DNA of 64,000 bases from positions 1-64,000 of the IMG/VR virus record IMGVR_UViG_3300006217_000030, one strand, 5' to 3'. The DNA comes from a virus. A model generated the notes under the pieces. It did no database searches. It saw only the letters and a list, made by a program, of their open reading frames with translations, and was not told where the DNA came from. Shown here in pieces: positions 2,251-35,505 of this stretch (its first letter is position 1; each line of letters opens with the position of its first letter). A program made the position numbers and the translations under genes.

Positions 2251-4254
2251 TTGGATAAAGTAAAGAGAATAAAAGAATTAACACAGAAACTTAATCAATA
2301 CAGAGATTCATATTATAACGACTCTGTATCAGAAATTTCAGATCATGAATATGATGAGTTATTCGATGAATTAAAGCAACTGGAAGAAGAAACAAATATT
2401 GTAATGGCTAATTCACCAACACATACAGTTGGATATGAAGTCAAGTCAAAACTTGAAAAGGTGAAACACTCGCATCTTATGCTTTCGCTTGATAAAACAA
2501 AGTCAGTAGATGATTTAAAGAAATTTGCTGGCGACAAAAATTGTATACTCATGTGCAAAATGGACGGATTAACTGTATTACTTACTTATGAGAATGGCGA
2601 GTTAATTCAGGCAGAGACTCGTGGAAATGGTGAAGAGGGAGAAATTATAACACACAATGCAAAGGTGTTTGAAAATATTCCATTACATATAGATTATACA
2701 GGACATTTGGAAGTTGAGGGTGAAGCCATTATTACATATAGTGACTTTGAAAAGATTAATAGTAAACTTCCTGAGAACGAAAAATATAAGAATCCACGTA
2801 ACCTTGTAAGCGGATCAGTTAGACAATTAGATAGTAATATTGCAGCACAGAGACATATCAAATTTATTGCTTGGAAAGTTCCCAATATAGAAGATAAGAT
2901 TAAAAGTGATAATTCTATTTTATTTAGATTAAATTATATTGGAGATTTAGGGTTTGATATTGTTCCTTTTTATTCATACACGAATTGTTCGTCAGATAAA
3001 GAAAATATTTATAATATGATAATTTCGTTGCAGGATAGAGCAAAGAAATTAGGTTATCCGATAGATGGACTTGTTGTAGCATATGATGATATTTCATATG
3101 GAGAGTCATTAGGAACAACAGGACACCACCCGAAACATTCTTTGGCATATAAATTCTATGATGACATTTATCCTACAAGATTGTTAGATGTAGAATTTAC
3201 GATGGGCAAGACGGGTGTTTTAACTCCAACAGCAGTATTTGAGCCAGTAGAGATTGATGGGACAATAGTTGAGAGAGCTTCACTTCATAATCTTTCAGTA
3301 ATGAGAGAATTGGGTATTGAATTTATTGGACAAGAAATAAATGTTTACAAAGCAAATCAAATAATACCTCAAATTCATAGTACGACACCAATTATGCCGT
3401 TTAAAGATCCAGAAGATAAAGAAGAAATAGAGAGTATAGTTATTCCTGATAAATGTCCTATATGTGGAGCAGATACAAAAATACCTAAAGATAATGATAC
3501 AGAGATTCTTGTATGTACTAATCCAAACTGTAAAGGTAAACTGCTTGGTAAATTATCACATTTTGTAAGTAAGAATGCAATTAACATAGACGGATTATCT
3601 GAACAAACATTACAGAGATTTATTGATTTAGGATGGTTAAATTCATTCAGAGATATCTATTATTTATCAGAACACAAAGAAGAAATGTATAAACTTGATG
3701 GTTTTGGTAAGAAATCTGTAGATAAACTGTTAGAAAGTATTGAAAAAAGCAGGAAAACTACATTGGATAGATTCATTTATGGACTGTGTATTCCTCTGAT
3801 TGGCAGAACAGCAAGTAAGGATATTGCCAACAATTTTAATTATGATTATGAACAATTTAGAAAATATGGAATAGTTACACATTACAAAGGAATTGATGGT
3901 TTTGGTGATAGTATGAATGATTCAATTCATGATTATCTAAGGAAAAATCATATGATGGTTGAAATGCTTGCAGACGAATTTACTTTTATAGTAAAGGAAA
4001 AATCGGAGAACAAAGTAAATTTATCTAATAAAACATTTGTGATTACTGGTAGTCTAAATTATTATAAAAACCGTGATGAGCTTGTAAATATTATTGAGCA
4101 GTTGGGAGGTAAAGTTTCAGGATCAGTTAGCACGAAAACAAATTATCTTATCAATAATGACACAGAAAGTAATTCATCAAAAAATAAGAAAGCTCATGAT
4201 TTGGAAATACCAATTATAAGCGAAGGTGAATTTATTCAGATGATCACATCTTAA
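2251..4254 (+). CDS. ligA: NAD-dependent DNA ligase (LigA family)
   Basis: Adenylation motif K-x-D-G (CKMDGLTV). Cys4 zinc finger (CPICGA...CTNPNC). HhH region and C-terminal BRCT-like segment (KTFVITGSL...GGKVSGSVSTKTNYLI). RBS gaaggagaatGTG-ATTGG context. Confidence 0.9.
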   Translation: MDKVKRIKELTQKLNQYRDSYYNDSVSEISDHEYDELFDELKQLEEETNIVMANSPTHTVGYEVKSKLEKVKHSHLMLSLDKTKSVDDLKKFAGDKNCILMCKMDGLTVLLTYENGELIQAETRGNGEEGEIITHNAKVFENIPLHIDYTGHLEVEGEAIITYSDFEKINSKLPENEKYKNPRNLVSGSVRQLDSNIAAQRHIKFIAWKVPNIEDKIKSDNSILFRLNYIGDLGFDIVPFYSYTNCSSDKENIYNMIISLQDRAKKLGYPIDGLVVAYDDISYGESLGTTGHHPKHSLAYKFYDDIYPTRLLDVEFTMGKTGVLTPTAVFEPVEIDGTIVERASLHNLSVMRELGIEFIGQEINVYKANQIIPQIHSTTPIMPFKDPEDKEEIESIVIPDKCPICGADTKIPKDNDTEILVCTNPNCKGKLLGKLSHFVSKNAINIDGLSEQTLQRFIDLGWLNSFRDIYYLSEHKEEMYKLDGFGKKSVDKLLESIEKSRKTTLDRFIYGLCIPLIGRTASKDIANNFNYDYEQFRKYGIVTHYKGIDGFGDSMNDSIHDYLRKNHMMVEMLADEFTFIVKEKSENKVNLSNKTFVITGSLNYYKNRDELVNIIEQLGGKVSGSVSTKTNYLINNDTESNSSKNKKAHDLEIPIISEGEFIQMITS

Positions 4255-4447
4255 ACAGAGAAGTAACAAATGTAACTCATAAACATATCATATAAAATTC
4301 AAATTTTAATCCAAGAGGTACAAGTGAATAGATTAAAAATTAAGCTATCAACACCTGAAATGGTGAGATTGAAGTGCAAGCGATCAGTTCTAACGAAAGT
4401 GTTATTTCATCGTTTGTTGAAGACATGAGAAAGTTTGAGGTGTAGAT

Positions 4448-5128
4448 ATGGGAAATGTAATTATTTTAGAGGAAACAACTAAAAATCCAATCACTTTGAT
4501 TGGTAAAAGAGCAGGAGTGTGTTGGGGAGCGGATGTTACAAATGATTCAAAAAATTATAGACGTGGAATTGATTGCATTACATCTAATCATGGAAGAACA
4601 CTTGAATATGTGAATGTAGAAATGATTATTGATGGATATTCTGCTAGAGTCATCCGTGAATGGTATACGCATTTGGGAGGATCACCTACACGTTTGCAAG
4701 CAAGTACAAGATACATAGATTATGAGCACGGATTTGATTATGTTGTTCCTGAAAGTATTAGAAATGATGAAAAAAGATATGAAATTTATACTGAAGCAAT
4801 CCATCAAATCAATAAAGCTCTTGTTGAATTAGAAGATATAGGAACACCTAGAGAGGATTCAGCATTATTACTTCCATTAGGAATGACTACAAAAATTGTA
4901 GATAAACGTAATTTGCGTAATCTTGTTGATATGTCACATCAACGCATGTGTAGTAGAGCATATCACGAATACAGAAAGTTATTTGGAGATATTTGCACTG
5001 AGCTATACAAAATTTCTGAGGAGTGGGCATGGATTGTAGATAATTTATTTGTCCCAAAATGTGATTATCTTAATTATTGTCCAGAGAAAAAATCTTGTGG
5101 AAGAGTAAATAAAAGTAGAGAGGAATAA
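4448..5128 (+). CDS. thyX: Flavin-dependent thymidylate synthase, ThyX-like
   Basis: Size (~226 aa) and ThyX-like signature region (...YTHLGGSPTRLQASTRY...), which diverges from the canonical RHR-x7-S motif. Nucleotide-metabolism context. Confidence 0.65.
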   Translation: MGNVIILEETTKNPITLIGKRAGVCWGADVTNDSKNYRRGIDCITSNHGRTLEYVNVEMIIDGYSARVIREWYTHLGGSPTRLQASTRYIDYEHGFDYVVPESIRNDEKRYEIYTEAIHQINKALVELEDIGTPREDSALLLPLGMTTKIVDKRNLRNLVDMSHQRMCSRAYHEYRKLFGDICTELYKISEEWAWIVDNLFVPKCDYLNYCPEKKSCGRVNKSREE

Positions 5129-5136
5129 ATACACAT

Positions 5137-5229
5137 ATGATTATTGTTTTACTAGGGGCTTCCGGCTCAGGGAAGTCCACAATTGAAAATGAACTGGCAA
5201 CACATCACGGCTTTGAAAAGATTATTTGA
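5137..5229 (+). pseudogene. Truncated P-loop NTPase/nucleotide-kinase remnant (30 codons: MIIVLLGASGSGKSTIENELATHHGFEKII*)
   Basis: Intact Walker-A (GASGSGKST) followed by a premature stop. The segment is locally GC-richer than its surroundings. It lies directly 3' of thyX and upstream of a block of unrelated small genes. Confidence 0.45.
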
Positions 5230-5281
5230 TTGGTAAATATATTACAATTATTGAAAATTTGGAGGTAAATAATTAAATATT

Positions 5282-5500
5282 TTGTACACTGGAAAACAAT
5301 TAAAAGAAATGATAAATAATCATATTGCAGATGATGATATTGTCTGCGTTGGAGGAGAGAAAGATGAATTAGGAATGTATGACCGTCAAATTGTTGGTGT
5401 TGAGAAACGCAAAGTTGGATTTGACGTTGATGATACATATAAAGCAATTATAACTAAGCCATTTGAAGCAAGTGGTGCAATGAAATTTTGGAAGAAATGA
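5282..5500 (+). CDS. hypothetical protein (72 aa)
   Basis: ORF in operon context. Start codon uncertain (TTG at 5282 or an internal ATG). Confidence 0.35.
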   Translation: MYTGKQLKEMINNHIADDDIVCVGGEKDELGMYDRQIVGVEKRKVGFDVDDTYKAIITKPFEASGAMKFWKK

Positions 5501-5521
5501 GGTGATTTTATTCAAAAGCGA

Positions 5522-6220
5522 GTGCTAAGTGGATCATTGATTATAGTTATTTTATTCTCAATATTCACGAACCCAATGCTGTCAAGTGCAGAAGGTAATT
5601 ACAGATATGCTAAAACAACAATAAATATTAGAGCAAAACCAAATGTAAAAAGCAAAATTGTTGGACATGTTTATTGGAATGATAAAGTAAAGATTCTGAA
5701 AAAAATAAACAAAAAGTGGTATATGGTGTCTTATAAGAAACAGAAGAGGTATATACGTAGAAAATATTTGAGAAAAAGCAGAAAGAAATATAAAACGTAT
5801 TCATCGCCAAGTACAAAAACATTTAAGTCTTATGAAGATGCAAATAGGATAACTGACAATTCTTCGTTGGCACAAGGAAAGTTAAAAGAGAAATATCATT
5901 TAGATTACCAATCTGGTGTTTGGATGGTAGGAAATAGATATTGTATTGCTATTGGGAGTTACTACACAAAAAATATCGGAGTAAAAATAGATTTAGTGTT
6001 ATCGCATAATGGCAGAAAGCGCATTCTGAAATGTATAACTGCCGATAGCAAAGCAGATAAAGATACAGTCAATAACCATAAGATTCATAAGGATGGGAGT
6101 GTTGTTGAGTTTGTAGTTAACACGGATTATATATCTAAAAGAGTTCATTTAATGGGTGATGTGTCATACGCAGGTGAAAAATTTAAAGGAAGAATAGTAA
6201 AAATATTTGTTTACAGATAG
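5522..6220 (+). CDS. Secreted protein with bacterial SH3-like N-terminal region. Possible cell-wall-binding protein or hydrolase.
   Basis: N-terminal signal-peptide-like hydrophobic segment (LIIVILFSIFTNPMLSSAEG). SH3b-like segment (INIRAKPNVKSKIVGHVYWNDKVKILKK..WYMVSY). Conserved C/H residues downstream. GTG start. Confidence 0.4.
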   Translation: MLSGSLIIVILFSIFTNPMLSSAEGNYRYAKTTINIRAKPNVKSKIVGHVYWNDKVKILKKINKKWYMVSYKKQKRYIRRKYLRKSRKKYKTYSSPSTKTFKSYEDANRITDNSSLAQGKLKEKYHLDYQSGVWMVGNRYCIAIGSYYTKNIGVKIDLVLSHNGRKRILKCITADSKADKDTVNNHKIHKDGSVVEFVVNTDYISKRVHLMGDVSYAGEKFKGRIVKIFVYR

Positions 6221-14290: not shown

Positions 14291-14725
14291 ATGGTAAAAG
14301 TAAAAATTAAATATTTTAGTGATGACGCAGAAAAGATATGTTATATCGAAGGAAAGTCCGACTGGATTGATTTACGTGCTTCAGAAGAGGTAACATTAAA
14401 GAAAGGGGAATTTAAGCTGATTCCGCTTGGGGTGGCGATGGAGCTTCCCAAAGGGTATGAGGCTCATATTGTGCCAAGGAGCAGTACATTTAAGAATTTT
14501 GGGATTATCCAGACAAACCATTGTGGCATTATTGACAATTCGTATTGTGGAGATAATGACCAATGGTATTTTCCTGCGTTAGCAATGAGAGATACAGTAA
14601 TACATAAAGGTGATAGGATTTGCCAGTTTAGGATTTTTAGAAATCAACCAGAGATTAATTTTTGTGAGGAGAAACATTTAAGCGGAAAGGACAGAGGCGG
14701 CTTTGGAAGTACAGGGAAAAAATAA
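14291..14725 (+). CDS. dut: dUTP pyrophosphatase (dUTPase)-like
   Basis: Beta-barrel dUTPase-like motifs (IPRSS-type: AHIVPRSS; GIIDxxYxG: [12 protein letters not shown]; C-terminal GGFGSTG). The start was trimmed to the ATG at 14291 with upstream AGGAG. Confidence 0.7.
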
Positions 14726-14948
14726 TGTTGATAAAATAGAAAAAATAGTATATAATAGTAATGATATTAGTAATAAGGATATGCTTATTATGAATAATCA
14801 TAATGGGAAAAAGAAAAAAACTATAAAAGTTACATCAAGTTATTTGGTTGATAATCCAACACAACAAGATGTTCAGACATTACAAAAAGAAGTACAAAAC
14901 ATTTTGCTTTCAAATATTCATCAAAATACTACAATTCAATCAAAGTAA
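14703..14948 (+). CDS. hypothetical protein (81 aa)
   Basis: ORF followed by a strong terminator. Confidence 0.3.
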
Positions 14949-14960
14949 TACATATATGAT

Positions 14961-14995
14961 ATAGGAGGGTTATAACCCTCCTATATGTGGTTTTA
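14961..14995 (+). terminator. Rho-independent terminator: perfect palindrome ataggagggttataaccctcctat followed by atgtggtttta
   Basis: 10-bp GC-containing stem with a 4-nt loop and a T-rich tail, upstream of the integrase promoter region. Confidence 0.6.
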
Positions 14996-15037
14996 TGAGT
15001 CAATTAACATAATAAAAATTGAAAGGATGATATTTTT

Positions 15038-16681
15038 ATGAATAATGATTATAAGTTAGTACGTATGTTACTACGAGTTAGTTCTAACCAACAATTAGAA
15101 GCGGATGGCGATTTATCTGTACAACGTCAATTAGTAAAAGAATATATTGAATCACATGAAAATTGGAAATTAGATAACAAGGAATATTTCGAGGGCAGTA
15201 AAAGTGGGTATAAGAATACTGTTGTTGAGCGAGATGTGTTACAACAGGCATTACAAGACGCAATAAATCAAGAATACGATATTCTTGTTGTTTATAAAGA
15301 TGATAGAATAGGGCGTAGGATGTGGGAGATTGGTGCTTATGTAATGCAACTAAAAAGTTATAATGTTGACATTTATACAGTTAAGGATGGATGTATTTCA
15401 CCAGAAACAGATGATATTATGGGGCAAATGATGTTAGCCTTAAGATATGGTAATGCACAAAAGAGTAGTTCTGATACTGGAATGAGAGTAAAAGATACTG
15501 CACAAAAGTTAGTCCAAAAGGGTAAATTTATGGGTGGTAAAGCTCCATATGGATATGAATTGGTTTTTTCAGGCGAAATTAGCAAACATGGACGAGCATT
15601 GAAAAAATTGCAAATAGTTGATGAAAAGGCAGATGTAGTAAAATATATTTATAATTTATCGTTAACAAAAGAATATGGATCATATAAAATTGCAGAAGTA
15701 TTAAATTCAAATGACGATTATATAAAACTGGCACCAAATGATTTTTGGAAATCAGGTACGATTACTAGTATATTAACCAATCCTGTTTACGCTGGCTATG
15801 TTGCTTATAAACGCAGAGAGCGTATTAATGGCAAATATTTAAGGCTTAGTGATGATGAATGGATTAAGTCTGAAAACCGTAATGAAAACATTGCTATTAT
15901 TGATGAAGATATATGGAATGAAGTACAACGTAAACGGAAATTGCGCAGTAAAGAGTATCAAAAAAGTTTTGAAGAAAATGAATACAATTTGATTAAAAAA
16001 AATGATGGGTTTCTTCCATTTATAGATGTTGCTTATTGTGGATATTGTGGTACAAAATTAACAAATAATTCACAGTACAATTATTGGACAATAAAAGGGA
16101 CAGGTGAAAAACGCGCAAGTAGAATTGGAGTCTACAGATGTCAAATGGCTCAACAAGGTATCCCTCATGATAAAACATGCAGATTTAGGGCTGATAAAAT
16201 AGAAAATATTATTTTTGAAGATATATGTAAATACTTAGACTCTTTATTAGATAATATTGATTTATCCCAAAACGTAAAGAATATTAAAGATAATGAATGT
16301 CAGAAATTAAAGAAGAATTTAGATAAGAATAAAAGAGAGTTGGTTAAAATAAAAAATGGAATTGATATAATGGAAGAACATATGCCTGAAGCTATGATGG
16401 GTAATTATATATTATCTATAGAAGAATTAGCTCATGCCATTAAAAAACATAAAGCAAACTTAGAAGACACTGAGAAAAAGATAAAAAATATTCAAGAACA
16501 AATAGATGATATCAATAATTCCAACAAAGAAATGGATGATATAAAAAATAATATACCAAAGTGGAAAGAAATATTTATGGGAACTGATAAACATACACAA
16601 CGTGTTATAGTTAACAAAATAATAGATAAAGTTATTATGAAAAAAGATGAAATTCATATTATATATAAAATTAAAATATGA
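15038..16681 (+). CDS. int: Large serine recombinase (phage integrase)
   Basis: N-terminal resolvase catalytic domain with LLRVSSNQQ (catalytic Ser motif) and YKDDRIGRR. Recombinase domain. Cys cluster (CGYCGTKL...CQMAQ). C-terminal coiled coil. Length 547 aa. Confidence 0.9.
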   Translation: MNNDYKLVRMLLRVSSNQQLEADGDLSVQRQLVKEYIESHENWKLDNKEYFEGSKSGYKNTVVERDVLQQALQDAINQEYDILVVYKDDRIGRRMWEIGAYVMQLKSYNVDIYTVKDGCISPETDDIMGQMMLALRYGNAQKSSSDTGMRVKDTAQKLVQKGKFMGGKAPYGYELVFSGEISKHGRALKKLQIVDEKADVVKYIYNLSLTKEYGSYKIAEVLNSNDDYIKLAPNDFWKSGTITSILTNPVYAGYVAYKRRERINGKYLRLSDDEWIKSENRNENIAIIDEDIWNEVQRKRKLRSKEYQKSFEENEYNLIKKNDGFLPFIDVAYCGYCGTKLTNNSQYNYWTIKGTGEKRASRIGVYRCQMAQQGIPHDKTCRFRADKIENIIFEDICKYLDSLLDNIDLSQNVKNIKDNECQKLKKNLDKNKRELVKIKNGIDIMEEHMPEAMMGNYILSIEELAHAIKKHKANLEDTEKKIKNIQEQIDDINNSNKEMDDIKNNIPKWKEIFMGTDKHTQRVIVNKIIDKVIMKKDEIHIIYKIKI

Positions 16682-16765
16682 TATCATATACGAACCAACC
16701 ACGAATTTATGTACACTATATTACCATTCGGTGTACATAAATTCGTGGTTGGTTCATATATGATA
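16682..16765. other. 84-bp near-perfect inverted repeat (35-bp arms, 14-nt spacer) directly downstream of the integrase stop. Candidate attP core and/or integrase terminator.
   Basis: Left arm tatcatatacgaaccaaccacgaatttatgtacac. The reverse complement of the right arm differs at 1 position. Spacer tatattaccattcg. Confidence 0.45.
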
Positions 16766-16793
16766 CTAATCAAATAATTACATCGTAAAAAAT

Positions 16794-16837
16794 AGGGCAG
16801 AAGAGAAGATACAAAAAGTATCCATCTCAACTGCCCT
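16794..16837 (-). terminator. Hairpin (agggcag...ctgccct) with a T-run on the - strand. Terminator of the late operon, convergent with int.
   Basis: 7-bp GC-rich stem. The - strand continues ATTTTTTACG. Lies between convergent genes. Confidence 0.45.
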
Positions 16838-16841
16838 AAAA

Positions 16842-17615
16842 TTATTCTACTTTAAAAAGATAGTTCCTGTCATTATAATATATTTCGTTTCCTATTTTAT
16901 AATATTTCCCAGGTGATAACACCGCACTATTTCCACGTAGCATTGAATAGATTAAGTATGTACCATTATATGCAAGTTGTGGTTCACAAACTAATTTACT
17001 TACAGTATTTAATCCACTTTCTGTATAATAGGTGGAAAAACTTATGTTTTTTAATACATTATAATTATGATTTTTGTTTCTTATGTATTTTGCACCGCTG
17101 CTAGAACTATCAATTTCGTAACCAGAAAAATAATATGCTTCTTCATTAGTGATTAGATTTTTAGCTTTAGCTATTGTAATAATCTTTTTCTCAGAAGTTG
17201 TACTTTTATATGCACCACATGTAATATTTATAAAGTTGTTACTTCCTCGTACAACTATATTATAATCATAATCTTTCTTACTCGTTTCTGCCATCCATAC
17301 ACTATTTGTGGATAATGAAATAGTTGAATTCATTGTTTCTGTATAAATATTTACTATATAATAATAACCACTTTTGATAATTACTACATAAAATTTAAAT
17401 CCCAATACAGTAATAGAATAGTCATCCTCATTCTTAGTAGCATCAGAATATCCGGCATCAATTATTGTTTCATAAACGGAATTTAAAAATTCTTCACTTA
17501 ATTCTTTGATTATCGTCACATTAGTAGTAGAAGTTTCAGATGTCAGTCCTACTATTGTTAAAGTTTCAGAAGTCAAACTATCATAACTACCTGAGTAAGC
17601 ATTTCTTACAACCAT
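16842..17615 (-). CDS. hypothetical tail-fibre-module protein (257 aa)
   Basis: Last gene of the late operon. Ser/Thr/Tyr-rich composition typical of fibre or adhesin accessory proteins. Confidence 0.4.
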   Translation of the reverse strand: MVVRNAYSGSYDSLTSETLTIVGLTSETSTTNVTIIKELSEEFLNSVYETIIDAGYSDATKNEDDYSITVLGFKFYVVIIKSGYYYIVNIYTETMNSTISLSTNSVWMAETSKKDYDYNIVVRGSNNFINITCGAYKSTTSEKKIITIAKAKNLITNEEAYYFSGYEIDSSSSGAKYIRNKNHNYNVLKNISFSTYYTESGLNTVSKLVCEPQLAYNGTYLIYSMLRGNSAVLSPGKYYKIGNEIYYNDRNYLFKVE

Positions 17616-17627
17616 TCAAAATCCTCC

Positions 17628-17930
17628 TTAAAATTGATATTGGGCACTAACATCTTCAACAGGTTTTGCGATTAAATCATTTCCGGTATACGCAATAAAT
17701 TTTTCTACTGGATAAAAATCTTTAATACTGTTACCGTTACTGTTTTTTATCTGCCTGATTTTTTCGCCGTATAATCCCAACTCAACAGTATCATCACACT
17801 CTATATGATTTTCGGTAATGGCAAGCTGGATATCGTCTACGGCGTTGCTCATATACTGTAATTTTTCTGCGATACTTCCCATATCACACCTTCTTTCTGT
17901 TAATTGCATCCAATACTTCTGGTATGTCAC
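17628..17930 (-). CDS. hypothetical protein (100 aa)
   Basis: ORF in the late operon. Confidence 0.35.
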   Translation of the reverse strand: MTYQKYWMQLTERRCDMGSIAEKLQYMSNAVDDIQLAITENHIECDDTVELGLYGEKIRQIKNSNGNSIKDFYPVEKFIAYTGNDLIAKPVEDVSAQYQF

Positions 17931-18447
17931 CTATTACATCTGTAAAGTGGTCATAAACTGTCTTTACTACTTTCGCTGTGGCTCCTTCTGTAATAGAAGA
18001 GGATTTATAGGAATCCAACAGATATTGTTTTGTGAGTAATATAAAATCAGTGCCGTTGAATCCAAGTACAACGGCACCGCCACAGATGATATCATGATAT
18101 GCTAAATGATTCCCATATTTATCAACGATAGAAAAAGTAGTGGAAGAGGAATTTATAACAACTTGTCCGGTATAATTGTCCGTTAAAGAACTGGATGTAT
18201 CGGATTTGAGAATTAGAAGAGTATGTGTATTTATTTTTTCAGCATCCAATCCGTCTACTGTAAAAGTGATTGTATTGTCATTTGTTAATGATATTGTTCC
18301 GTAATAGGTAGATGAGCTGCCTCCTCCAGAAGAAACCAAATCATCAACATACTTTTTATTTACCGCATCCCATTCATCTGTGGGAGTGAAAAGTAATTTC
18401 AGTTTTGATAATATTTTCAATTTATCACCTCCAAATAAAAAAGCCAT
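17884..18447 (-). CDS. hypothetical tail-fibre-associated protein (187 aa)
   Basis: ORF directly downstream of the fibre gene, Ser/Thr-rich. Confidence 0.4.
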   Translation of the reverse strand: MAFLFGGDKLKILSKLKLLFTPTDEWDAVNKKYVDDLVSSGGGSSSTYYGTISLTNDNTITFTVDGLDAEKINTHTLLILKSDTSSSLTDNYTGQVVINSSSTTFSIVDKYGNHLAYHDIICGGAVVLGFNGTDFILLTKQYLLDSYKSSSITEGATAKVVKTVYDHFTDVIGDIPEVLDAINRKKV

Positions 18448-18451
18448 TCGG

Positions 18452-20041
18452 TTATTTCAATATCACTTTCGCAACGCTATCTGAAATAATCTGAATCACC
18501 CTGTATGAATTTTTTGTATCTTCATCACATGCTGTGGCAATACCTTCTGAATTACAGCAACAGTATCCATTAATTTTAAGGCTTCCATCCTGCCAGACAG
18601 AAAGTACTCCAAGCATTCCAACAGGCGACCATTCTGGACGTTCAAAACGAGATACATATGTTTGTGAAGAATCATAATCAGGATTTAACTTAGGACGCAT
18701 TTCATATACTATATCACCATTCTCATCAACAACTTCTTGCTCAACAACTTCTCTATTTTCATTCTCCTGCAATTCAGTTTTAGGAACTTCTTCGTATATT
18801 GTACGGTTGAAATCATCTTTAAGGTACATTCCGTTCCATGTATCACAGTCTCCATTTCCTAATACAAATGGTTCACCAGACACAATGCCTAAAATATAAT
18901 TTTCATTTGACGTTGCAATGGATATCTTATCCCCGTTTATTGTTACAAATTTACCAACCCTGTCTTCTTTGTCAGGGTTTCTGTCTTCCCATTCAAAAAA
19001 TTCTGCATAGTCTGCTGTTGTAGATGATGTAATGGTTGATTGTGCTTTTACCACTCCATCGTAATCAACGGAAAATGCATTATGTCTTATAAGAATAGCA
19101 TTACTAGAATTGTATGAGCCGTTTCCTATGGAGAACAAAACATCTTTCTCTACATTGCAAGTACCACAAGCAAAATTATTCTCTCCTTTTGCTATTGCTC
19201 TATATCCAGAAGCATGAGAACCTGTACCTATGGCTTTTGTGTATCGACCTTCCGCATGAGAACCTGTACCTCTGGCGTCTGTGTAAATACCTTCCGCATG
19301 AGAAAAATCTCCTAATGCTTCTGTGAAATCACCTTCCGCATGAGCTGCTTCTGCATTAGCTTTTGTGCATAGACCTTCCGCATGGGAATAATTACCACTA
19401 GCTTCAACATTACGACCAAAGGCAAAACTTTTTTCCCCAATAGCAGTACCCTCTTTTCTTCCAAAACTGACAGAATCATCACCATAAATGCTCTTTATGG
19501 CGTATGTATCACTAATCTTATTGCCATGACTATCTTTTGTAGCTTTTACAGCACTTGCTACACTCTTTTCGCTATCCGCAGTATTATCAACATTGTCCAG
19601 TCCGATATCTTTTGGGGAAATTGTAACATTTCCGGTTCTAAATTCACTTTCAGCAGAGCCTTTTATTCCGCTTACACCACTGGCAACAGGGGAAGTGGAA
19701 GAGCTGTCATCATTATTGTCACTGTTATCACCGCCCGTTGTGCCATTATTTGTACCATTTATGCCATATATTGTTACACTGTAATTGTCTGCTGCCGAAG
19801 GAGCAATGGAAAATATAATATTGACAGTATTATTATCTACAATATTGTAATCTGTAAAAATCAACCCATCTTCATCATTCATCTCAAACAGAATATCTTC
19901 TGTATCCAAATTATGTTTAATGGTAAAAACAGTTTTTACTCCGTCACCTGTTATAGTTGTGGCATATTTCTTTAAGGATTGCCCATTTGAACCGCCATCT
20001 ACACGGACAATCTCACTTTGTTTTGTCTTATATAAAATCAT
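18452..20041 (-). CDS. Tail fibre / receptor-binding protein with 14-aa tandem SHAEG repeats
   Basis: Repeats of the form ..SHAEGxYTxAxGxG (HAEGDFTEALGDFS / HAEGIYTDARGTGS / HAEGRYTKAIGTGS / HASGYRAIAKGENN). Gly/Asn/Thr-rich N-terminal region. Confidence 0.5.
   Translation of the reverse strand: MILYKTKQSEIVRVDGGSNGQSLKKYATTITGDGVKTVFTIKHNLDTEDILFEMNDEDGLIFTDYNIVDNNTVNIIFSIAPSAADNYSVTIYGINGTNNGTTGGDNSDNNDDSSSTSPVASGVSGIKGSAESEFRTGNVTISPKDIGLDNVDNTADSEKSVASAVKATKDSHGNKISDTYAIKSIYGDDSVSFGRKEGTAIGEKSFAFGRNVEASGNYSHAEGLCTKANAEAAHAEGDFTEALGDFSHAEGIYTDARGTGSHAEGRYTKAIGTGSHASGYRAIAKGENNFACGTCNVEKDVLFSIGNGSYNSSNAILIRHNAFSVDYDGVVKAQSTITSSTTADYAEFFEWEDRNPDKEDRVGKFVTINGDKISIATSNENYILGIVSGEPFVLGNGDCDTWNGMYLKDDFNRTIYEEVPKTELQENENREVVEQEVVDENGDIVYEMRPKLNPDYDSSQTYVSRFERPEWSPVGMLGVLSVWQDGSLKINGYCCCNSEGIATACDEDTKNSYRVIQIISDSVAKVILK
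19210..19380 (-). repeat. Intragenic tandem DNA repeat, ~42-nt period, 4 units (ccttccgcatgag...), encoding the 14-aa SHAEG repeats
   Basis: Directly visible repeated ccttccgcatgag at 19248, 19290, 19333 and 19375. Confidence 0.6.
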
Positions 20042-28290: not shown

Positions 28291-31200
28291 CTAAAACTTT
28301 TTCAGAACATTTTGGAACGGATTTTTAATATCACCCAATACGCATTCCGACATCCTCTGTTTATTTCTTGGCTGGTTTAGCTGTTGGAACATAGATTCCA
28401 TATCTACTATTCCGCTTCCATCTAAATGTACATTAATATCTCCCGTATTAACAGAAGTATTATTCGTGTTATTGACAGGGACACTTTCATACTTTGGCAT
28501 CATGTCAGTATACTCAAACGGCATACCAAGATGTGCCATTAATATCCGTTCCTGCTCTGGCGTAATCTTTGAACCAACAGGTATATACCTGTCTGCAATC
28601 TTCTTTACTGCTTTTGTCTCTTCTTTTGTGAGGACAGCTTCACCTTTCTGTATGGTAATTATTCCGTCATCACCGTTATCCTTTGCAGCTTTATTTAATG
28701 TACTTGCAATACCACCGTCTGCAAATCCAGCGTTCTTAAAGGCATTACGAATTTTAACGGATTCATCATAGGTAATGTTCTTTTTATCCTTAAGGCTGAT
28801 ACCAAGCATTTCGGCAAGTTCCGCTTCCTTTGCTTTGGTCAGATAACCTTTCTTATTGTATTTCTTATCAAGGTACTGCAATAGTTTGTCCGTTGCAATC
28901 CGCATGGATTCTTCCGTATTCTTTGGTTTGCGGAGGTTCTTTTTCAGAAAGGAATCAATTTCCGCATCCTTTCCAACCCTGTTATTATCAGATATGGTTT
29001 CCTTGCCTGCTGTTGCAGTATTGTTTGTGGTATCTGCAACATTATGTTCTGATGACGTTCCGTTTTGTACAGCCTGTACCAGATTATCCTTACTTTTTTC
29101 AACACTTTCACCGAATGCTTCTTTTTCATCCTGCAAAACCTTGTTTAAGTCGCTGGTTGTATCCGTGACACGTTTTACTTCGTAGGTTAAATCGTCTGCT
29201 GCGGAAGTTGTATCATCAATGCTTGTGTCAAACTTATTGTTTACATTCGTGCCTGTCTTGTCATATGTGGATTCATAGGAATTACCGCCATAATCAATAC
29301 TGCTGTTGGTATGTGTCCCGTCCGGGTTATATGTGGTAATAATGGACAGGGCATCTCCGAGTCCGAGTTCATCCAGTGCCCTTGCAACAGCTTCCGGGTT
29401 ATCCGTAACCATCTGTAACAGACTGTCCATGGAACCGTTTATGTCTTTTCTCAGGTCATTCATGATTCTTTCCCAGAAATCCTCTACTTCGTCAGCAAGG
29501 GTATCAAGCATGTCGGTCTGGTCATCATACCACTTATCATACTCCGTGTCCCTTAGTTCTTCCTGTGCTTCCTCAAGGCTGACCTGTAACTTTTGTAGTT
29601 TTGCCCTTGCTTCCTCACTGTGGTCACCTGATAATGCTGCAATCTGTTTCTGTATTAAAGCAATATTCTTTGTCTGCTTTGCAACCTTTTTTTGGTATTC
29701 GTATAAATCTTTCTCTGTTGCCAGTGCATTCTTTTTCTTTTCAATCAGCTCATTAATGGAATCAACCTGTACTTGTAATGCATTCTCTACAAGGTCAAGG
29801 ATGGCATCTTTCTCATCTGCAATGGCTTTTGTGCTGTCCCTTATGATATCAAGCTGCTCCTCACGCTTTGCCATAAATTCCTCTTCGTTGTATCCGTCTG
29901 TACCATCTGCATGTTTTTCATACAGTTTATCCAATTCCTTCTGTGCATTCTCAATAACCTTCTTATGATTATCCATGTTTGAGAATCGGAGCGATATGGT
30001 GGCAAACCCTTCATCCGTCAGACCTCCTGATTCCTTGCTGGTCAGTTCCTCATGTGAGAGCATGTCAACCAAAAAGTCAAGATGGCTCTTTGTGGCATCA
30101 AGCTGCGCTGCCATAAGTGAGAATTTCTTAAAGTCTAATTCATTGATGGCTTTTTGGAATTCAATGGTCTGCTGTGTGCAGGAGTAAAGGGACTGGTCAA
30201 TGGATTCCATGTCATTTTTCCATGCATACCATTCCTTAGAACCGTATTCAAACTTCTTCCCGGCTTCCTCCAGTTCCGAACGTTCCTTTAACAGCTTCTC
30301 TTTTGTGCCTTCATTAATCTTCATCATCCCATCATACAATGACTTGGAAACAGACTGCCCAGCGGCTTCCAGTGTGGCAATTTCAGACTGTATGGTTGAA
30401 ATCCTTGCGTCATTCAGACCTGTCTTATTGTCATATTCCGCTTTGATATTGTCATACATCTTTTGATAGGATTCATTGACTTTTTCCTGTTTCTCAGCCT
30501 GTAAGCGTTTCTGCTCTGTGGCATCGCCTTCCAGTTCAGCAATCTTAATCAGTTTATCGTACTGCTTATTCAGGTATTTCAGGCTTTCGGCTTCATATTT
30601 GTTCTTATCTTTTGCGGAAACAGCATTGGTTTCATACTGCTGGTTCAGGTTGTATTTTGCCTCTGCTTCATCAGCATAGTTTTGCGCCCGTTCTATGCGT
30701 TTCTCACGCATGTTTGTTTCATTCTGCTCTTTGGCAAGTTTCTTATCACGTAAAACATCTGCTACAAAATCAACACTGTTATTGTAGTTAAGAAGCTTTT
30801 GATAGGTTGCCGTATTGTGCTTTCTGACTTTCTTCATAAGGGCAGAAGGGATTTCCTTACCCTGCTTAATCAGTTTTTTGATTTTATTCTTCTCTGATTT
30901 GCTAAGCCCTTTTGTATTATTTACGGCAGACTTTGCAGTTTTCCCGCTCTTATTCCTTTGTGTTTTAGATTCCTGATAGTACTTTTTATATGCCTCGTTG
31001 TCTGACTTGTAGGTATTGATTTCCTTATTCAGAATCTTATGTTTCTCTTTTGCGGTTGTGGCATTGGCGTATCTTGCTTCCTGATAGGTGCGCTTTCTCT
31101 CGTTGTCCTCAAGCTTCAAGTCTAACTTCTGTTTTGAGAGGTCTTTGATTTCTGCTTTGAGTTCCTGTACCGCTTTTTTAGCATCTTTTACTTTATCAAT

Positions 31201-34200
31201 GTAATCCTGATATTTGTTAATCTGCTTTGCAGTCTTTTCACCGTATTCCCTGATTAATTCTGACAGGCTTCCTTTGATGTCACCGTTTCTGACTTTTTTC
31301 TTTAAAGGTTCTGAAAGTTTGATGCTGTCTGCTTTCTTATTGTATTTTGTAACGGCTTTCTGCTGTGCATTAAGAAGTTTTGTAGTCTTCTCTATCTGAT
31401 TCGTCAGGTTATTCTTTTGTCGTTTTACGGAAAACAGGTTGTCAAACTTTGCCTTGGTTAAGTCTATCTTGTCCTGTAATACATCCAGTTTACGTTCAAT
31501 CCAGTCAATAAGCTGTTTGGAATCTTTCTTTTTGTCTTTATCGGATGACTTTTTCGACTTAGATGATTTTTTCTGTGATTTCCTTTCAGAGGAAGAGTAA
31601 GTCCATCCTGGAATACCAGAACCAATAGATGCCCCATTTGTTGAACCAGCGTTATAAGCCATTTTCCCGCGGTTATTGGAAGACGTAATTTTGCCATTCT
31701 TTAAGAGCTGTCTTGTCTGCATATGGTTAAAGACAATATCGCCTTTTTTCAGTTCGGTAAACTGTGCGCCGCCTTTTACGGTGAACCATCTTCCGTCACG
31801 GACGATCAGTTCCTCACCAAGTTCATTGACTAATGCTGTCTGGTCTTTTGGGATGCTGATATTGCCGGAAGCATTTGCAAATCCCTGCTTTGCAAGGTTT
31901 CCTTTTAATAAATTAAAAGTCCCATTTGCATGTGATTTTTTATTATCACTTTTCTCTTCCTTTTCTTTATTTTTACTGTCCTTTTTTGATGGTTTAGAAG
32001 ACACTTTGTCAAGTTCGCTGGAATCAACCTCGACTTTTGCCTTAATGGTTTTCTGAAGTGTCTTATCCATAAACTCATTTACTGCTTTGTCATCAAGCTC
32101 CGTAGTGACTTTTAAAGTTGTCTCTTTCTTTTCTTTTTTATAGGCATCCACTTCTTTGTGGTTTACAATGGCATTGACCATTACATCAATGTCGTCTTTG
32201 CCTAATTTTTTCAGTTCATCCTTTGCGGAAGATATATCGTCAAAATCAATATGGATATCTGAAAGCTCTTTCCCATAATTGGACTTGATTGCTTTGATAT
32301 CACTTTTTATTTTTTTCTCCGTTTCCGATGTATCTGCGCCGATCTTCATCTGGATATCATAAGTATTGATTTCTTGCTGGATTCTTTGCAGCATGGATAC
32401 GACACCGACAGCTTTGCCGCTTAACTGGCTTGCATCAACCTGTAGGATGGCAGGCTTCTCAATCTCCTGTTTTTCTGTCAGTAGTTTGGCAAGGATGGTC
32501 TGTGCTTCCTTCGCGCCTTTTACATTGACATCCACGTTCCCGTCTTTATCCCTGAACGTATTTAATACATTTTTGGCATCTTCAATCTGCGTGTTTACTC
32601 TGCTGATATCGCCTGTATCGAACTTAAATTTCATCTTTTTACCGATTTTACCAAGTTCTTTTAATTTGCTGTAAGCTTTCTCAGCAGCAACCCCCATCAT
32701 TTCAAGGGAACCAAAACTGTCCCCAAAATCAATGTAAAATCCGTAATCAACCAGTTTCCGTAAAATAGCCTGTAAAGCTTCCACGTCAATTCCCAGCCTC
32801 TTGGCAACGTCTTTGTCACTGGAACCGCCTGCACCGAAATCAATCTCCCATGAGCCGTCTTTATTCATATGCGCCCATTCCGAATTGATTTTCTGCACGT
32901 CCTTTAAGAAATTCTCTGCACCCTTGTGCCCATCAGTGAAGTACCTTTCTATCTTGCCAATGCTTTGCTGGTATGCCCTGACAACTTCTTCAGTTGTTGC
33001 ACCTGCTAAGTCTTTTGGCGAAATAAGGTCAACATATGTGCGGAAGTCATCTGTGCCGACCAATCCCTTTTTATATAGTTCCTTTACCGACTTAATGTTA
33101 TTGTAAATGGAATCATACATGTCTCCTTCATTTGCAGTGGACAATGCTTCCTGCCACTTGTTATAGGCAGAGGTAAGCCCTACATACTGGTCTGCAAGCT
33201 GTGCCGCCTGCTGGTACTGGTCGTATAGGCTGTCAACAACGGACTGCTCCTCACCGTTCCTTAAAGCATCCTGCCATGAATTATAGGCATCCTCAACATT
33301 CTGGTAAAACTCTTTTGCGGTATTGTCGTCGTATTCCTTTTTGAGTTTTTCCAGTTCCCTTGTGTTGAGGCGGAGTCCGTTTGCTGTCTTGTCAAGAAGT
33401 TTGTCTTCATCATATCCTTTCAGGTCACTGAACATGGAAGTAACAGCATCAACAGAATCAGAGGATAACCCTGTGCCTGATACGGATTCTGACAGGGCAG
33501 TAGTGAGTGAAGATACATTTTCGGATACAGACTCGTATGTTTCTTTGAGTGCTTCTAACTGCTGTGCGGTTTTGTCAACAGCATCCATGGTAAGATATTT
33601 CCGTTTTGCTTCTGCTGCATTGTCAGCTTCAGCGGCAATTTCTTTCCATGTGTCAATTTCTTCTTTTGTGTTAATGGAATTTTCCTCAAAGAATTTTTCG
33701 AGGTCTTCTTTCTGGCTGTCATCCAGTTTCCATTTTTCTGCTGCGGATTTGATTGCACCATTGTAATCATTTACAAGTTCATCGAGATTGTCAAAGCCAA
33801 GGCTGGAAAGTAGTTTATTCTGTTGGTCATCTGTTTTTAATCCAATAGCGTTGCCGATTGTGCTGATAAGGGAACGGACTTTTGTAACGTACTCATTGAC
33901 AGGAAGTTTGTCTATTCCTTTTCCGAATAGCTGGCTCCATGCTTTGGAGAAATCTCCATCTTTAGAAACATTGTCAATTAACTTTTGGGCAAATATGGCA
34001 ATGTCATCTTGTGATTTTAAGTTTAGGTCATCCCATAATTCACTATTAAAAGATGATACCAAAGTAGTTATGGAATCTCTCTGCTTATCATTTAATTTTG
34101 AGTCATCCCAAAAATCTTCTTTCATATGTAGGGCATTGATTAAATCTGAACGTCCTTTTGCTACATCGGATTCTATATCAGCAGAAAATTGTTCTATTTT

Positions 34201-35505
34201 TGCCGCTATTTTATATTGCAGTTCTTGGAATTTTTCATCATTATATTCCAATATATCATCCACATCGGAGATATCAAGCATATCTGCTAATGTTTTTCTT
34301 AGAACATTTCTTTCGCCTTCTTCAAAATCAGCGAAAGTCCATACTTTTTTTAAATAGTTATAAATTTCTTTTCTGCTTTTGTTCTGTAAATCTTTTAATC
34401 CGTTTAATGCGTCTTCCGTTGGAACAGTATCTTCACTTGCTTTTCCAAATAAAGTAGCGAATCCTGCTTTTACTGTCTTCCAAACCGATTCGAATTTACC
34501 ATATTTTTTGTTATTTTCAATATTATCAAGTGTGTCTTGTACAGTTGCCCCTTCTTCATTGCCATTATAGAATAAATCTTTAGCTTTCGTTTTAATGGTT
34601 CGTTCGTACTCATCATTTAAGTCTGACAATTTCCCTTTGACAAACCCGATTTTTTCTCCCTGTGCATTGAAGTAAGTTGTTAAACTTGGCATTATATCAG
34701 ATACTTGGCTGATAATATCCTTATATTCATCATATTCGCTTGTAGAAAGTGAAACATTTTCGCCAAGATTATTTACACCTTTTGACAATTCCTGATATTT
34801 GGAATTCAAATCAGATAATTTTGATGAATCACTTGCAATATTTTCGTTTAATGAATTAACGGATGATGCAAAGCTATCAGCATTTTCTTTGGCTCTTTCT
34901 GATTCAGTTGCCAGGTCGTGAAGTCCTGTTGCAACTGTAGTTATTACTTCACTGATAGCCCACATAACACCAACATTGAGAGCCACAGAGAGTGCTTTAG
35001 CTGCGACTGTGGCCGCTTTTGCTCCGAGTGTCTGCTGCTTGAGGGCATTGTTGTGGGCGATGGCTGATTCACGGGCTGCTTTGTTGGCTTTGATTAGCCC
35101 TTTTTCTGTGATTATCTGTCCTTCCATCTCTTTGCCTAATTTTGCAAGATGTTTTTCACCTTCTGGAAGTGTATCAAATAAGTCCTGCCATGTTTTCTTG
35201 CCTTCTGCGACGCTTTTTGACATATCTTTAATTTTTGATAATGAATCTGCTATGTTAGATTCATCTATCTTAGGCATTACATCAATAAATTGTTCTTTGA
35301 GGTCTTTCTTATTAGAAAATAGATTACTCCATAAACTTCCAACCTGTTTTTTTGCATCAGATTTACGGATATTTTGATTTGTTAAATCTTTTATTGCAGA
35401 TTTGTAATTTTTTATATTATTTGCGAAATCATTAAATGACTTTCCAAACATACCCCACTTTGAACTTATTTTATCAATATCGCTGTCAAATGTTTTGAAT
35501 ATCAT
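28291..35505 (-). CDS. Tail tape measure protein, C-terminal/major portion (2404 aa): hydrophobic Gly/Ala segment followed by a very long coiled coil
   Basis: TMP-typical hydrophobic region (GAKAATVAAKALSVALNVGVMWAISEVITTVATGL) ~180 aa in, then ~2000 aa of K/E/Q-rich coiled coil. Located upstream of Dit and Tal. No SD-like RBS, and only 104 bp separate it from the divergent upstream gene. Confidence 0.7.
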   Translation of the reverse strand: MIFKTFDSDIDKISSKWGMFGKSFNDFANNIKNYKSAIKDLTNQNIRKSDAKKQVGSLWSNLFSNKKDLKEQFIDVMPKIDESNIADSLSKIKDMSKSVAEGKKTWQDLFDTLPEGEKHLAKLGKEMEGQIITEKGLIKANKAARESAIAHNNALKQQTLGAKAATVAAKALSVALNVGVMWAISEVITTVATGLHDLATESERAKENADSFASSVNSLNENIASDSSKLSDLNSKYQELSKGVNNLGENVSLSTSEYDEYKDIISQVSDIMPSLTTYFNAQGEKIGFVKGKLSDLNDEYERTIKTKAKDLFYNGNEEGATVQDTLDNIENNKKYGKFESVWKTVKAGFATLFGKASEDTVPTEDALNGLKDLQNKSRKEIYNYLKKVWTFADFEEGERNVLRKTLADMLDISDVDDILEYNDEKFQELQYKIAAKIEQFSADIESDVAKGRSDLINALHMKEDFWDDSKLNDKQRDSITTLVSSFNSELWDDLNLKSQDDIAIFAQKLIDNVSKDGDFSKAWSQLFGKGIDKLPVNEYVTKVRSLISTIGNAIGLKTDDQQNKLLSSLGFDNLDELVNDYNGAIKSAAEKWKLDDSQKEDLEKFFEENSINTKEEIDTWKEIAAEADNAAEAKRKYLTMDAVDKTAQQLEALKETYESVSENVSSLTTALSESVSGTGLSSDSVDAVTSMFSDLKGYDEDKLLDKTANGLRLNTRELEKLKKEYDDNTAKEFYQNVEDAYNSWQDALRNGEEQSVVDSLYDQYQQAAQLADQYVGLTSAYNKWQEALSTANEGDMYDSIYNNIKSVKELYKKGLVGTDDFRTYVDLISPKDLAGATTEEVVRAYQQSIGKIERYFTDGHKGAENFLKDVQKINSEWAHMNKDGSWEIDFGAGGSSDKDVAKRLGIDVEALQAILRKLVDYGFYIDFGDSFGSLEMMGVAAEKAYSKLKELGKIGKKMKFKFDTGDISRVNTQIEDAKNVLNTFRDKDGNVDVNVKGAKEAQTILAKLLTEKQEIEKPAILQVDASQLSGKAVGVVSMLQRIQQEINTYDIQMKIGADTSETEKKIKSDIKAIKSNYGKELSDIHIDFDDISSAKDELKKLGKDDIDVMVNAIVNHKEVDAYKKEKKETTLKVTTELDDKAVNEFMDKTLQKTIKAKVEVDSSELDKVSSKPSKKDSKNKEKEEKSDNKKSHANGTFNLLKGNLAKQGFANASGNISIPKDQTALVNELGEELIVRDGRWFTVKGGAQFTELKKGDIVFNHMQTRQLLKNGKITSSNNRGKMAYNAGSTNGASIGSGIPGWTYSSSERKSQKKSSKSKKSSDKDKKKDSKQLIDWIERKLDVLQDKIDLTKAKFDNLFSVKRQKNNLTNQIEKTTKLLNAQQKAVTKYNKKADSIKLSEPLKKKVRNGDIKGSLSELIREYGEKTAKQINKYQDYIDKVKDAKKAVQELKAEIKDLSKQKLDLKLEDNERKRTYQEARYANATTAKEKHKILNKEINTYKSDNEAYKKYYQESKTQRNKSGKTAKSAVNNTKGLSKSEKNKIKKLIKQGKEIPSALMKKVRKHNTATYQKLLNYNNSVDFVADVLRDKKLAKEQNETNMREKRIERAQNYADEAEAKYNLNQQYETNAVSAKDKNKYEAESLKYLNKQYDKLIKIAELEGDATEQKRLQAEKQEKVNESYQKMYDNIKAEYDNKTGLNDARISTIQSEIATLEAAGQSVSKSLYDGMMKINEGTKEKLLKERSELEEAGKKFEYGSKEWYAWKNDMESIDQSLYSCTQQTIEFQKAINELDFKKFSLMAAQLDATKSHLDFLVDMLSHEELTSKESGGLTDEGFATISLRFSNMDNHKKVIENAQKELDKLYEKHADGTDGYNEEEFMAKREEQLDIIRDSTKAIADEKDAILDLVENALQVQVDSINELIEKKKNALATEKDLYEYQKKVAKQTKNIALIQKQIAALSGDHSEEARAKLQKLQVSLEEAQEELRDTEYDKWYDDQTDMLDTLADEVEDFWERIMNDLRKDINGSMDSLLQMVTDNPEAVARALDELGLGDALSIITTYNPDGTHTNSSIDYGGNSYESTYDKTGTNVNNKFDTSIDDTTSAADDLTYEVKRVTDTTSDLNKVLQDEKEAFGESVEKSKDNLVQAVQNGTSSEHNVADTTNNTATAGKETISDNNRVGKDAEIDSFLKKNLRKPKNTEESMRIATDKLLQYLDKKYNKKGYLTKAKEAELAEMLGISLKDKKNITYDESVKIRNAFKNAGFADGGIASTLNKAAKDNGDDGIITIQKGEAVLTKEETKAVKKIADRYIPVGSKITPEQERILMAHLGMPFEYTDMMPKYESVPVNNTNNTSVNTGDINVHLDGSGIVDMESMFQQLNQPRNKQRMSECVLGDIKNPFQNVLKKF

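Follow-up and report, generated by a model that had tools for sequence, protein, structure and literature searches.

Gene content of the integrase region

The analysed stretch (the window) comprises 64,000 nucleotides, positions 1 to 64,000 of the IMG/VR virus record IMGVR_UViG_3300006217_000030. The features of the region around the integrase gene are compiled in Table 1. The product of int was classified as a large serine recombinase because it carries the Pfam domains Resolvase (PF00239), Recombinase (PF07508) and Zn_ribbon_recom (PF13408) together with the catalytic-serine motif RVSSNQQ near its N-terminus; a long C-terminal region follows. Genes for an anaerobic ribonucleotide reductase (NrdD), a dUTPase and a DNA ligase are encoded on the plus strand to the left of int, and genes for tail, tape-measure and portal proteins on the minus strand to the right. 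Phage genes are thus present on both sides of int, as stated in the original prediction. The GC content is approximately 30%, and the GC skew changes its sign at the inverted repeat beside int, where the two convergent gene modules meet.

All tblastn matches of the integrase in a phage collection were at or below 25% identity, and a megablast search of positions 14500-18500 against the same collection gave no match. A large protein collection contained an identical integrase and a graded series of relatives. Within the tail region, the minus strand of the window also carries an open reading frame for 2404 amino acids (28291-35505) without a PHROG match, which is separate from a tape-measure-like protein of 658 amino acids and has a local GC content of approximately 40% compared to 30%.

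Table 1. Positions and supporting observations for the features of the attachment region (window coordinates, except for the target gene, which is given in contig coordinates)
Feature	Position	Strand	Basis or remark
int, large serine recombinase, 547 aa	15038..16681	+	Pfam hits, translation, distant PDB matches to phiC31 integrase
Whole 84-bp inverted repeat, attP in the broad sense	16682..16765	.	Repeat finder, fold, shuffles; both prophage junctions inside
Int-proximal arm, P half-site plus outer extension	16682..16716	.	Stays beside int in lysogens; L002 identical throughout the arm
Probable functional attP, about 54 bp	16697..16750	.	Int-proximal half conserved among relatives; conservation decays past about 26 bp
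14-bp common core of attP, attB, attL and attR	16722..16735		Plus strand TACCATTCGGTGTA; host-gene orientation TACACCGAATGGTA
Putative crossover dinucleotide AC (GT in host-gene orientation)	16723..16724	.	Repeat geometry and position in the core
Tail-module-proximal arm, P' half-site plus outer extension	16731..16765	.	Stays at the other prophage end (L098, then 3' part of the host gene)
Separate terminator-like hairpin	16793..16838	-	Followed by six T on the minus strand (16792-16787); sequence and fold
257-aa phage gene flanking attP on the tail-module side	16842..17615	-	Anchor for finding the second junction
Target gene in the lysogen	5' fragment L002 11687-11947; 3' fragment L098 1979-2578		Intact in the L010-L088 group

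Structure of the inverted repeat

The repeat finder returned an inverted repeat of 84 bp with two arms of 35 nt each (97% complementary, one mismatch), separated by a gap of 14 nt (16717-16730, TATATTACCATTCG). Since the TGA stop codon of int occupies positions 16679-16681, the repeat begins at the base directly after the stop, with a gap of 0. In the original prediction, two 35-bp arms with a single difference and a 14-nt spacer had been described as abutting the int stop codon, and this geometry was reproduced exactly. Half-sites of large serine recombinases are typically about 25 bp long, and the 35-bp arms exceed this length considerably.

The repeat scan of the window revealed no longer local inverted repeat. 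The second-longest one, located in the early-gene region (1502-1526 and 1639-1663), has arms of 25 nt with 96% complementarity, which are 112 nt apart. With up to 3 mismatches allowed, the arm sequence was found at two places in the window only and did not occur in 100 shuffles. The calculated folding energy of the repeat region was -74.6 kcal/mol, compared to -24.6 +/- 3.4 kcal/mol in shuffled sequences (z = -14.7). The lone mismatch between the arms, at position 16756, is polymorphic: the contig L098 and two Logan unitigs carry a variant that yields a match of 35/35. There are consequently two phage alleles (T or C at 16756), which both retain 34 to 35 matching positions out of 35.

Searches for further copies were performed in viral and metagenome collections. 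Scans of IMG/VR with a 25-mer of the arm, the integrase, the 257-aa neighbour and a junction pattern yielded nothing relevant, and a 21-mer of the arm had 0 matches in the JGI metagenomes. A degenerate palindrome pattern matched only the coding sequence of an unrelated gene (L109-L111) and was discarded, as were two JGI hits to the junction pattern, namely L095, a coincidental match within coding sequence, and L094, where the contig end is ambiguous. Logan unitigs from three samples (L004, L099 and L100) all stop exactly 30 nt into an arm (...GAATTTATG). These were not accepted as biological ends and are best explained as breaks in the de Bruijn graph, because a perfect 35-nt palindrome is longer than the probable assembly k-mer. 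Graph breaks of this kind could hide such attachment sites in short-read unitig sets.

Phage form and prophage junctions

Contigs encoding an identical integrase fell into two classes, the attP form and a junction with host DNA. Contigs of the attP form, found either via the identical integrase (L001 and L003) or via neighbouring phage genes (L006-L008, L096 and L097), matched the window across the repeat and into the tail genes. Several independent samples yielded this form, in which the repeat is flanked by phage genes at either end.

The host junction on the int side was found in contig L002 (ENA ERZ14651000, NODE_623), which agrees with the window at every base from int to position 16735. 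The first mismatch occurs at 16736, followed by bacterial DNA; the bacterial part has a GC content of 41% and the phage part of 31%, and bacterial genes lie past the junction. The opposite end was located by look-up of a phage protein of 84 amino acids encoded on the tail side of the repeat. On the contig recovered, L098 (ERZ14651000, NODE_3939), the genes for the 84-aa and 257-aa proteins are followed by the terminator-like hairpin, by arm 2 and finally by bacterial DNA (43% GC). L098 is identical to the window down to position 16722 and diverges first at 16721. Both prophage junctions are therefore present in one metagenome assembly, and both are located inside the repeat.

From the limits of L002 (16735) and L098 (16722) a shared core of 14 bp at positions 16722-16735 was deduced. 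It consists of the right part of the 14-nt gap and 5 nt of arm 2, and is identical to the host target. The hybrid junctions are reciprocal and conservative: the attB rebuilt from both flanks restores an in-frame gene, with no base gained or lost.

The repeat had been proposed as attP, with lysogen junctions breaking within it and a search for attB as possible checks. Both ends of the prophage in ERZ14651000 break in this way, the int-proximal junction does so also in seven relatives with integrases of 50-93% identity, and the rebuilt attB contains a 14-bp core identical to that of attP. The assignment as attP is upheld by these results. As a refinement, the 14-nt spacer is not neutral, since its right part belongs to the host-identical core.

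Host target gene

The bacterial side of L002 contains the first 87 codons of a gene (...LNRVYTEW), to which the phage adds a TAA stop codon directly after W87. The remaining 194 codons, starting with YRNRGKNFTITSS..., are found on the bacterial side of L098; there, gene callers let the 3' fragment begin with an ATG that belongs to the phage arm (MYTEWYRN...). When the flanks were joined through the core, an in-frame open reading frame of 281 amino acids was obtained; it aligns without gaps to the uninterrupted genes of L010 and L026, at 91.6% identity. The reconstructed attB reads CTGGCAATCCAGTCTATCACATTGAACCGCGTT-TACACCGAATGGTA-CAGGAATCGCGGCAAAAACTTTACCATTACCAG.

For a survey of the host gene, one genome per species was used, and the best 80 loci of more than 500 homologues were kept. 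The gene is uninterrupted at codon 87/88 in nearly all of these 80 loci, and a full-length open reading frame of about 280 amino acids is present in 61 of them. Across the site, the uninterrupted genes read ...ACNGARTGG TAYCGNAAY..., and the gene is intact in most related Lachnospiraceae genomes.

The protein of 281 amino acids exhibits a weak SpoIID-like match in its N-terminal part and a PG_binding_1 domain at the C-terminus. Comparison to PDB entry 9h68_A (Spore cortex-lytic enzyme pre-pro-form) gave an E-value of 3e-102 over residues 219-476, and the target was thus considered a homologue of mature SleC. As judged from this homology, the target gene appears to be related to the gene of the spore cortex-lytic enzyme SleC. 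The insertion point between codons 87 and 88 (...RVYTEW|YRN...) lies within the SpoIID-like region.

Junctions of related integrases

Seven relatives with integrases 50-93% identical to that of the window (L093, 93%; L112, 91%; L005, 84%; L091/L092, 73%; L089/L090, 72%; L014, 55%; L069, 50%) interrupt this gene too, with the break at TGG|T(A) as in L002 and int 26-60 nt away from it. The int-proximal halves of L002, L093, L112, L005, L089, L091 and L014 were compared in a junction alignment. On the element side, the sequence AACCAYGAATTTATGTAYAC-TATATTA, which covers the first 26 positions counted from the dyad centre and matches the inner arm, is common to the 72-93% relatives; it is matched only partly in L091 and especially in L014. 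The motif AACCACGAATTTATGTAYAC of the int-proximal arm is likewise kept in the integrase relatives. Beyond approximately 26 bp from the centre, the P-side sequence differs in the relatives with 91%, 84%, 73% and 72% identity, and a similar outer arm is kept only in L093.

In one relative with an 87%-identical integrase (contigs L106-L108), the stop codon is followed by 60-72 nt that bear no relation to the repeat, and a site abutting the stop codon is therefore not universal. Since all three contigs end within 72 nt of the stop, the attachment site must be located elsewhere or further downstream. The second arms of the relatives were sought via a 199-aa C-terminal gene product, and an attP form was recovered for no relative. 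The candidates P0188 and P0218 ('MYTEW...') were rejected as junctions, as they represent GTG starts inside host genes.

Two additional observations were made on related elements. In L094 (1820-1885), the arm motif CCGAATTTATGTACAC stands on the coding strand after an integrase gene with 60% identity, and GGAGTGGTATCGGAAT, which equals the core in host-gene orientation, comes next; this order suggests an attachment site inverted relative to int, near an ambiguous contig end. In the 72% prophage, a gene for an IS605 OrfB/Cas12f-like TnpB protein (L089, 2197-3399) is located about 1.6 kb upstream of int.

Probable crossover point and functional extent

Strand exchange must, to judge from the junction sequences, take place within the 14-bp core 16722-16735, although the core alone does not fix the position of the cut inside it. 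The repeat has its dyad centre between 16723 and 16724, where the dinucleotide is AC; this dinucleotide is non-palindromic and located inside the core. The junctions of L014 and L091 read TGGT|C, which places the exchange at or left of GT in these two. At the L104/L105 junction, which has the other polarity and belongs to an element of uncertain type, only GTAC... is common to the host gene, and the exchange is therefore at or right of GT. From these limits and the symmetry of the repeat, the crossover was assigned with moderate confidence to AC/GT at 16723-16724.

The conserved part of the half-site, about 26 bp, is presumably bound by protein. Its length agrees with the minimal attP sites of characterised enzymes, which span 39-52 bp (PMC5499854). 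Since only the inner 26 bp or so of each half-site are conserved, the functional site probably has the usual size of about 50 bp. Positions 27-42 from the centre, which make up the outer 16 bp of either arm, are specific to this phage lineage. As they are not conserved in the 84% and 91% relatives, part of the 84 bp may lie outside the functional site.

Evaluation of alternative explanations

The repeat might chiefly act as an RNA hairpin, terminating or stabilising the int transcript, and merely lie near the real attachment site. The predicted stem is very stable, the repeat is located between convergent genes, and on the minus strand the sequence behind the stem is moderately rich in T (TCATATTTTAATTTT). 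However, the int strand carries no U-tract after the stem past 16765 (CTAATCAAATAA), the terminator scan found 0 terminators, and a separate hairpin with a T-run is present 28 nt downstream of the repeat. The latter (16793-16838) was not called by the simple terminator scan, lies downstream of the convergent 257-aa gene and looks like its terminator from sequence and predicted fold. The suggestion that the repeat doubles as an intrinsic terminator was consequently not sustained, at least for one of canonical type. Both prophage junctions lie inside the repeat, which makes it an attachment site whatever other role it may have, and an explanation by a hairpin in place of attP is very improbable. 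A secondary role of the hairpin in addition to attP is conceivable. As integration separates the arms, the 84-bp hairpin would form only in the excised form, where it could conceivably affect int transcripts. It is a possibility that expression of int depends in this way on the integration state. With their near-perfect inversion over 35 bp and the short centre between them, the arms also resemble the ends of a MITE, and their outer sequence is lineage-specific, so that the terminal repeats of a MITE-like non-autonomous element or another selfish palindrome beside int were considered. Against this origin, the window holds one copy, exact scans of viral and metagenome collections revealed no copies, the inner arm is kept as int-proximal half-site in the relatives, and the exchange with host DNA takes place inside it. 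It is regarded as hardly credible, and like the terminator it was rejected on the evidence of the junctions.

A further reading refines the assignment as attP without contradicting it. The attP would comprise only the inner 50 bp or so, and the outer 16 bp per arm would be a recent palindromic extension without function, generated for instance by template switching between the arms. Both the P-side divergence past about 26 bp in the four relatives mentioned above and the size of characterised minimal sites are in favour of a short attP. Retention of 34-35 of 35 matches in both alleles at 16756 argues against it, as does the similar outer arm of L093, and the chances of such an extension are considered even.

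Proposed integration mechanism

In every respect examined, the site behaves like an attP of a large serine recombinase. The 84-bp repeat is regarded, with a probability of about 0.93, as the attP of a temperate phage whose host is a gut bacterium of the Lachnospiraceae type. It separates the end of int from the convergent tail module. In the proposed mechanism, integrase subunits would bind the two near-identical half-sites, and attP is paired with the chromosomal attB inside the 281-aa SleC-related gene at codons 87/88. Strands are exchanged within the 14 bp common to both sites, most likely at AC/GT at the dyad centre; being non-palindromic, this dinucleotide would at the same time determine in which orientation the phage inserts. 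The repeat is split on integration, with the int-side arm left beside the 5' 87 codons and the other arm beside the 3' 194 codons. The integrase alone would presumably be sufficient, and the inner 50 bp or so would be enough as a substrate.

A complete set of sites (attP, attB, attL, attR and the 14-bp core) is thereby provided for an integrase with 25% identity or less to those of the phage collection. Such sets are raw material for genome-engineering tools. In addition, an uncultured phage of approximately 86 kb is linked to a Lachnospiraceae host.

Repeated insertion into the target gene

Among the best 80 loci of more than 500 homologues, six are interrupted at codon 87/88. Seven further loci of the same 80 (L035, L050, L054, L056, L057, L066 and L072, at about 4400-4460 in each) are interrupted within codons ~150-180. 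The insertion at this second site in L072 has a size of 2.3 kb and encodes a large serine recombinase of 486 amino acids (4394-5857) and one open reading frame for 117 amino acids; it resembles the minimal gin element of gerE (PMC5595907). In three further genomes (L055, L068 and L070, at about 4190-4260 in each locus) the gene is likewise broken at TGG|TA, by elements whose adjacent sequence is unrelated to the attP described here. In L068, the junction forms part of another inverted repeat (GAATGGTAGGGCAGTCAC...GTGACTGGCCCTACCATTC), and a serine recombinase gene lies about 2.3 kb from the junction in L055 and L068. A second split of the 5' part of the host gene, close to codon 30, is seen in L005 and L112, both from sample 3300010163. 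The insertion in L005 (2920-7777, about 4.9 kb) contains genes for a Tn916-type Xis, a tyrosine integrase, an endonuclease and a chemoreceptor; that in L112 extends from 1945 onwards.

The target gene thus appears, from these loci, to be an insertion hot spot that is hit repeatedly by different serine-recombinase elements. The repeated hits are a hint of regulated gene integrity in gut spore formers, and a germination enzyme would be a possible case of it. No paper naming a sleC-type gene as target of intervening elements was found in a literature search. By analogy, the phage might act as a reversible switch of the SleC-type germination gene, itself a previously unrecognised hot spot for serine-recombinase elements in Lachnospiraceae, an extension of the attP assignment that is put forward tentatively and is rather doubtful. 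If it were true, the gene would be split in the lysogen and rebuilt only upon excision by the integrase, for example in the sporulating mother cell as for SPβ and skin, and complete phages would enter the hot spot at codon 87/88, whereas minimal elements made up of a recombinase alone would do so near codon 150.

Comparison with known systems

Attachment sites of serine integrases on the phage genome lie close to int and consist of two inverted half-sites around a non-palindromic central dinucleotide, with little similarity to attB beyond a short core. The classical attP sites of phiC31, Bxb1, TP901-1 and A118 have sizes of 39-56 bp and cores of 2-12 bp (PMC5499854, PMC1470463). The site described here shares with them the position near int, the inverted half-sites around a non-palindromic dinucleotide and, outside a short core, the low similarity to attB. 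It differs by its symmetry, which is imperfect in the four classical sites and near-perfect over 35 bp per arm here, and by its core of 14 bp.

The elements skin in sigK and gin in gerE are serine-recombinase elements that interrupt spore genes at a fixed position (PMC5025042, PMC5595907). The present element likewise occupies a fixed position in a putatively spore-related gene; unlike skin and gin, it is a phage of full size, which several samples also contained in the excised form.

The closest known system is SPβ with its integrase SprA, which inserts into spsM of Bacillus subtilis. The SPβ attP has perfect arms of 16 bp and a 16-bp core identical to attB in spsM, with a minimal site of 52 bp, and its authors had not seen so symmetric an attP in other enzymes of the family (PMC5499854). 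In both systems, a large serine recombinase acts on a symmetric attP enclosing a core identical to attB, and the prophage splits a coding sequence that contains attB and is, or in the present case appears to be, related to spores. The integrases are only distantly related, and the arms measure 35 bp here compared to 16 bp in SPβ, the cores 14 bp compared to 16 bp. The AA crossover of SPβ is located in the middle of the core, whereas the dyad centre of the present site falls at core positions 2-3, and the core is therefore one-sided and reaches 5 bp into one arm. The long near-perfect symmetry of this attP exceeds that which was called exceptional for SPβ.
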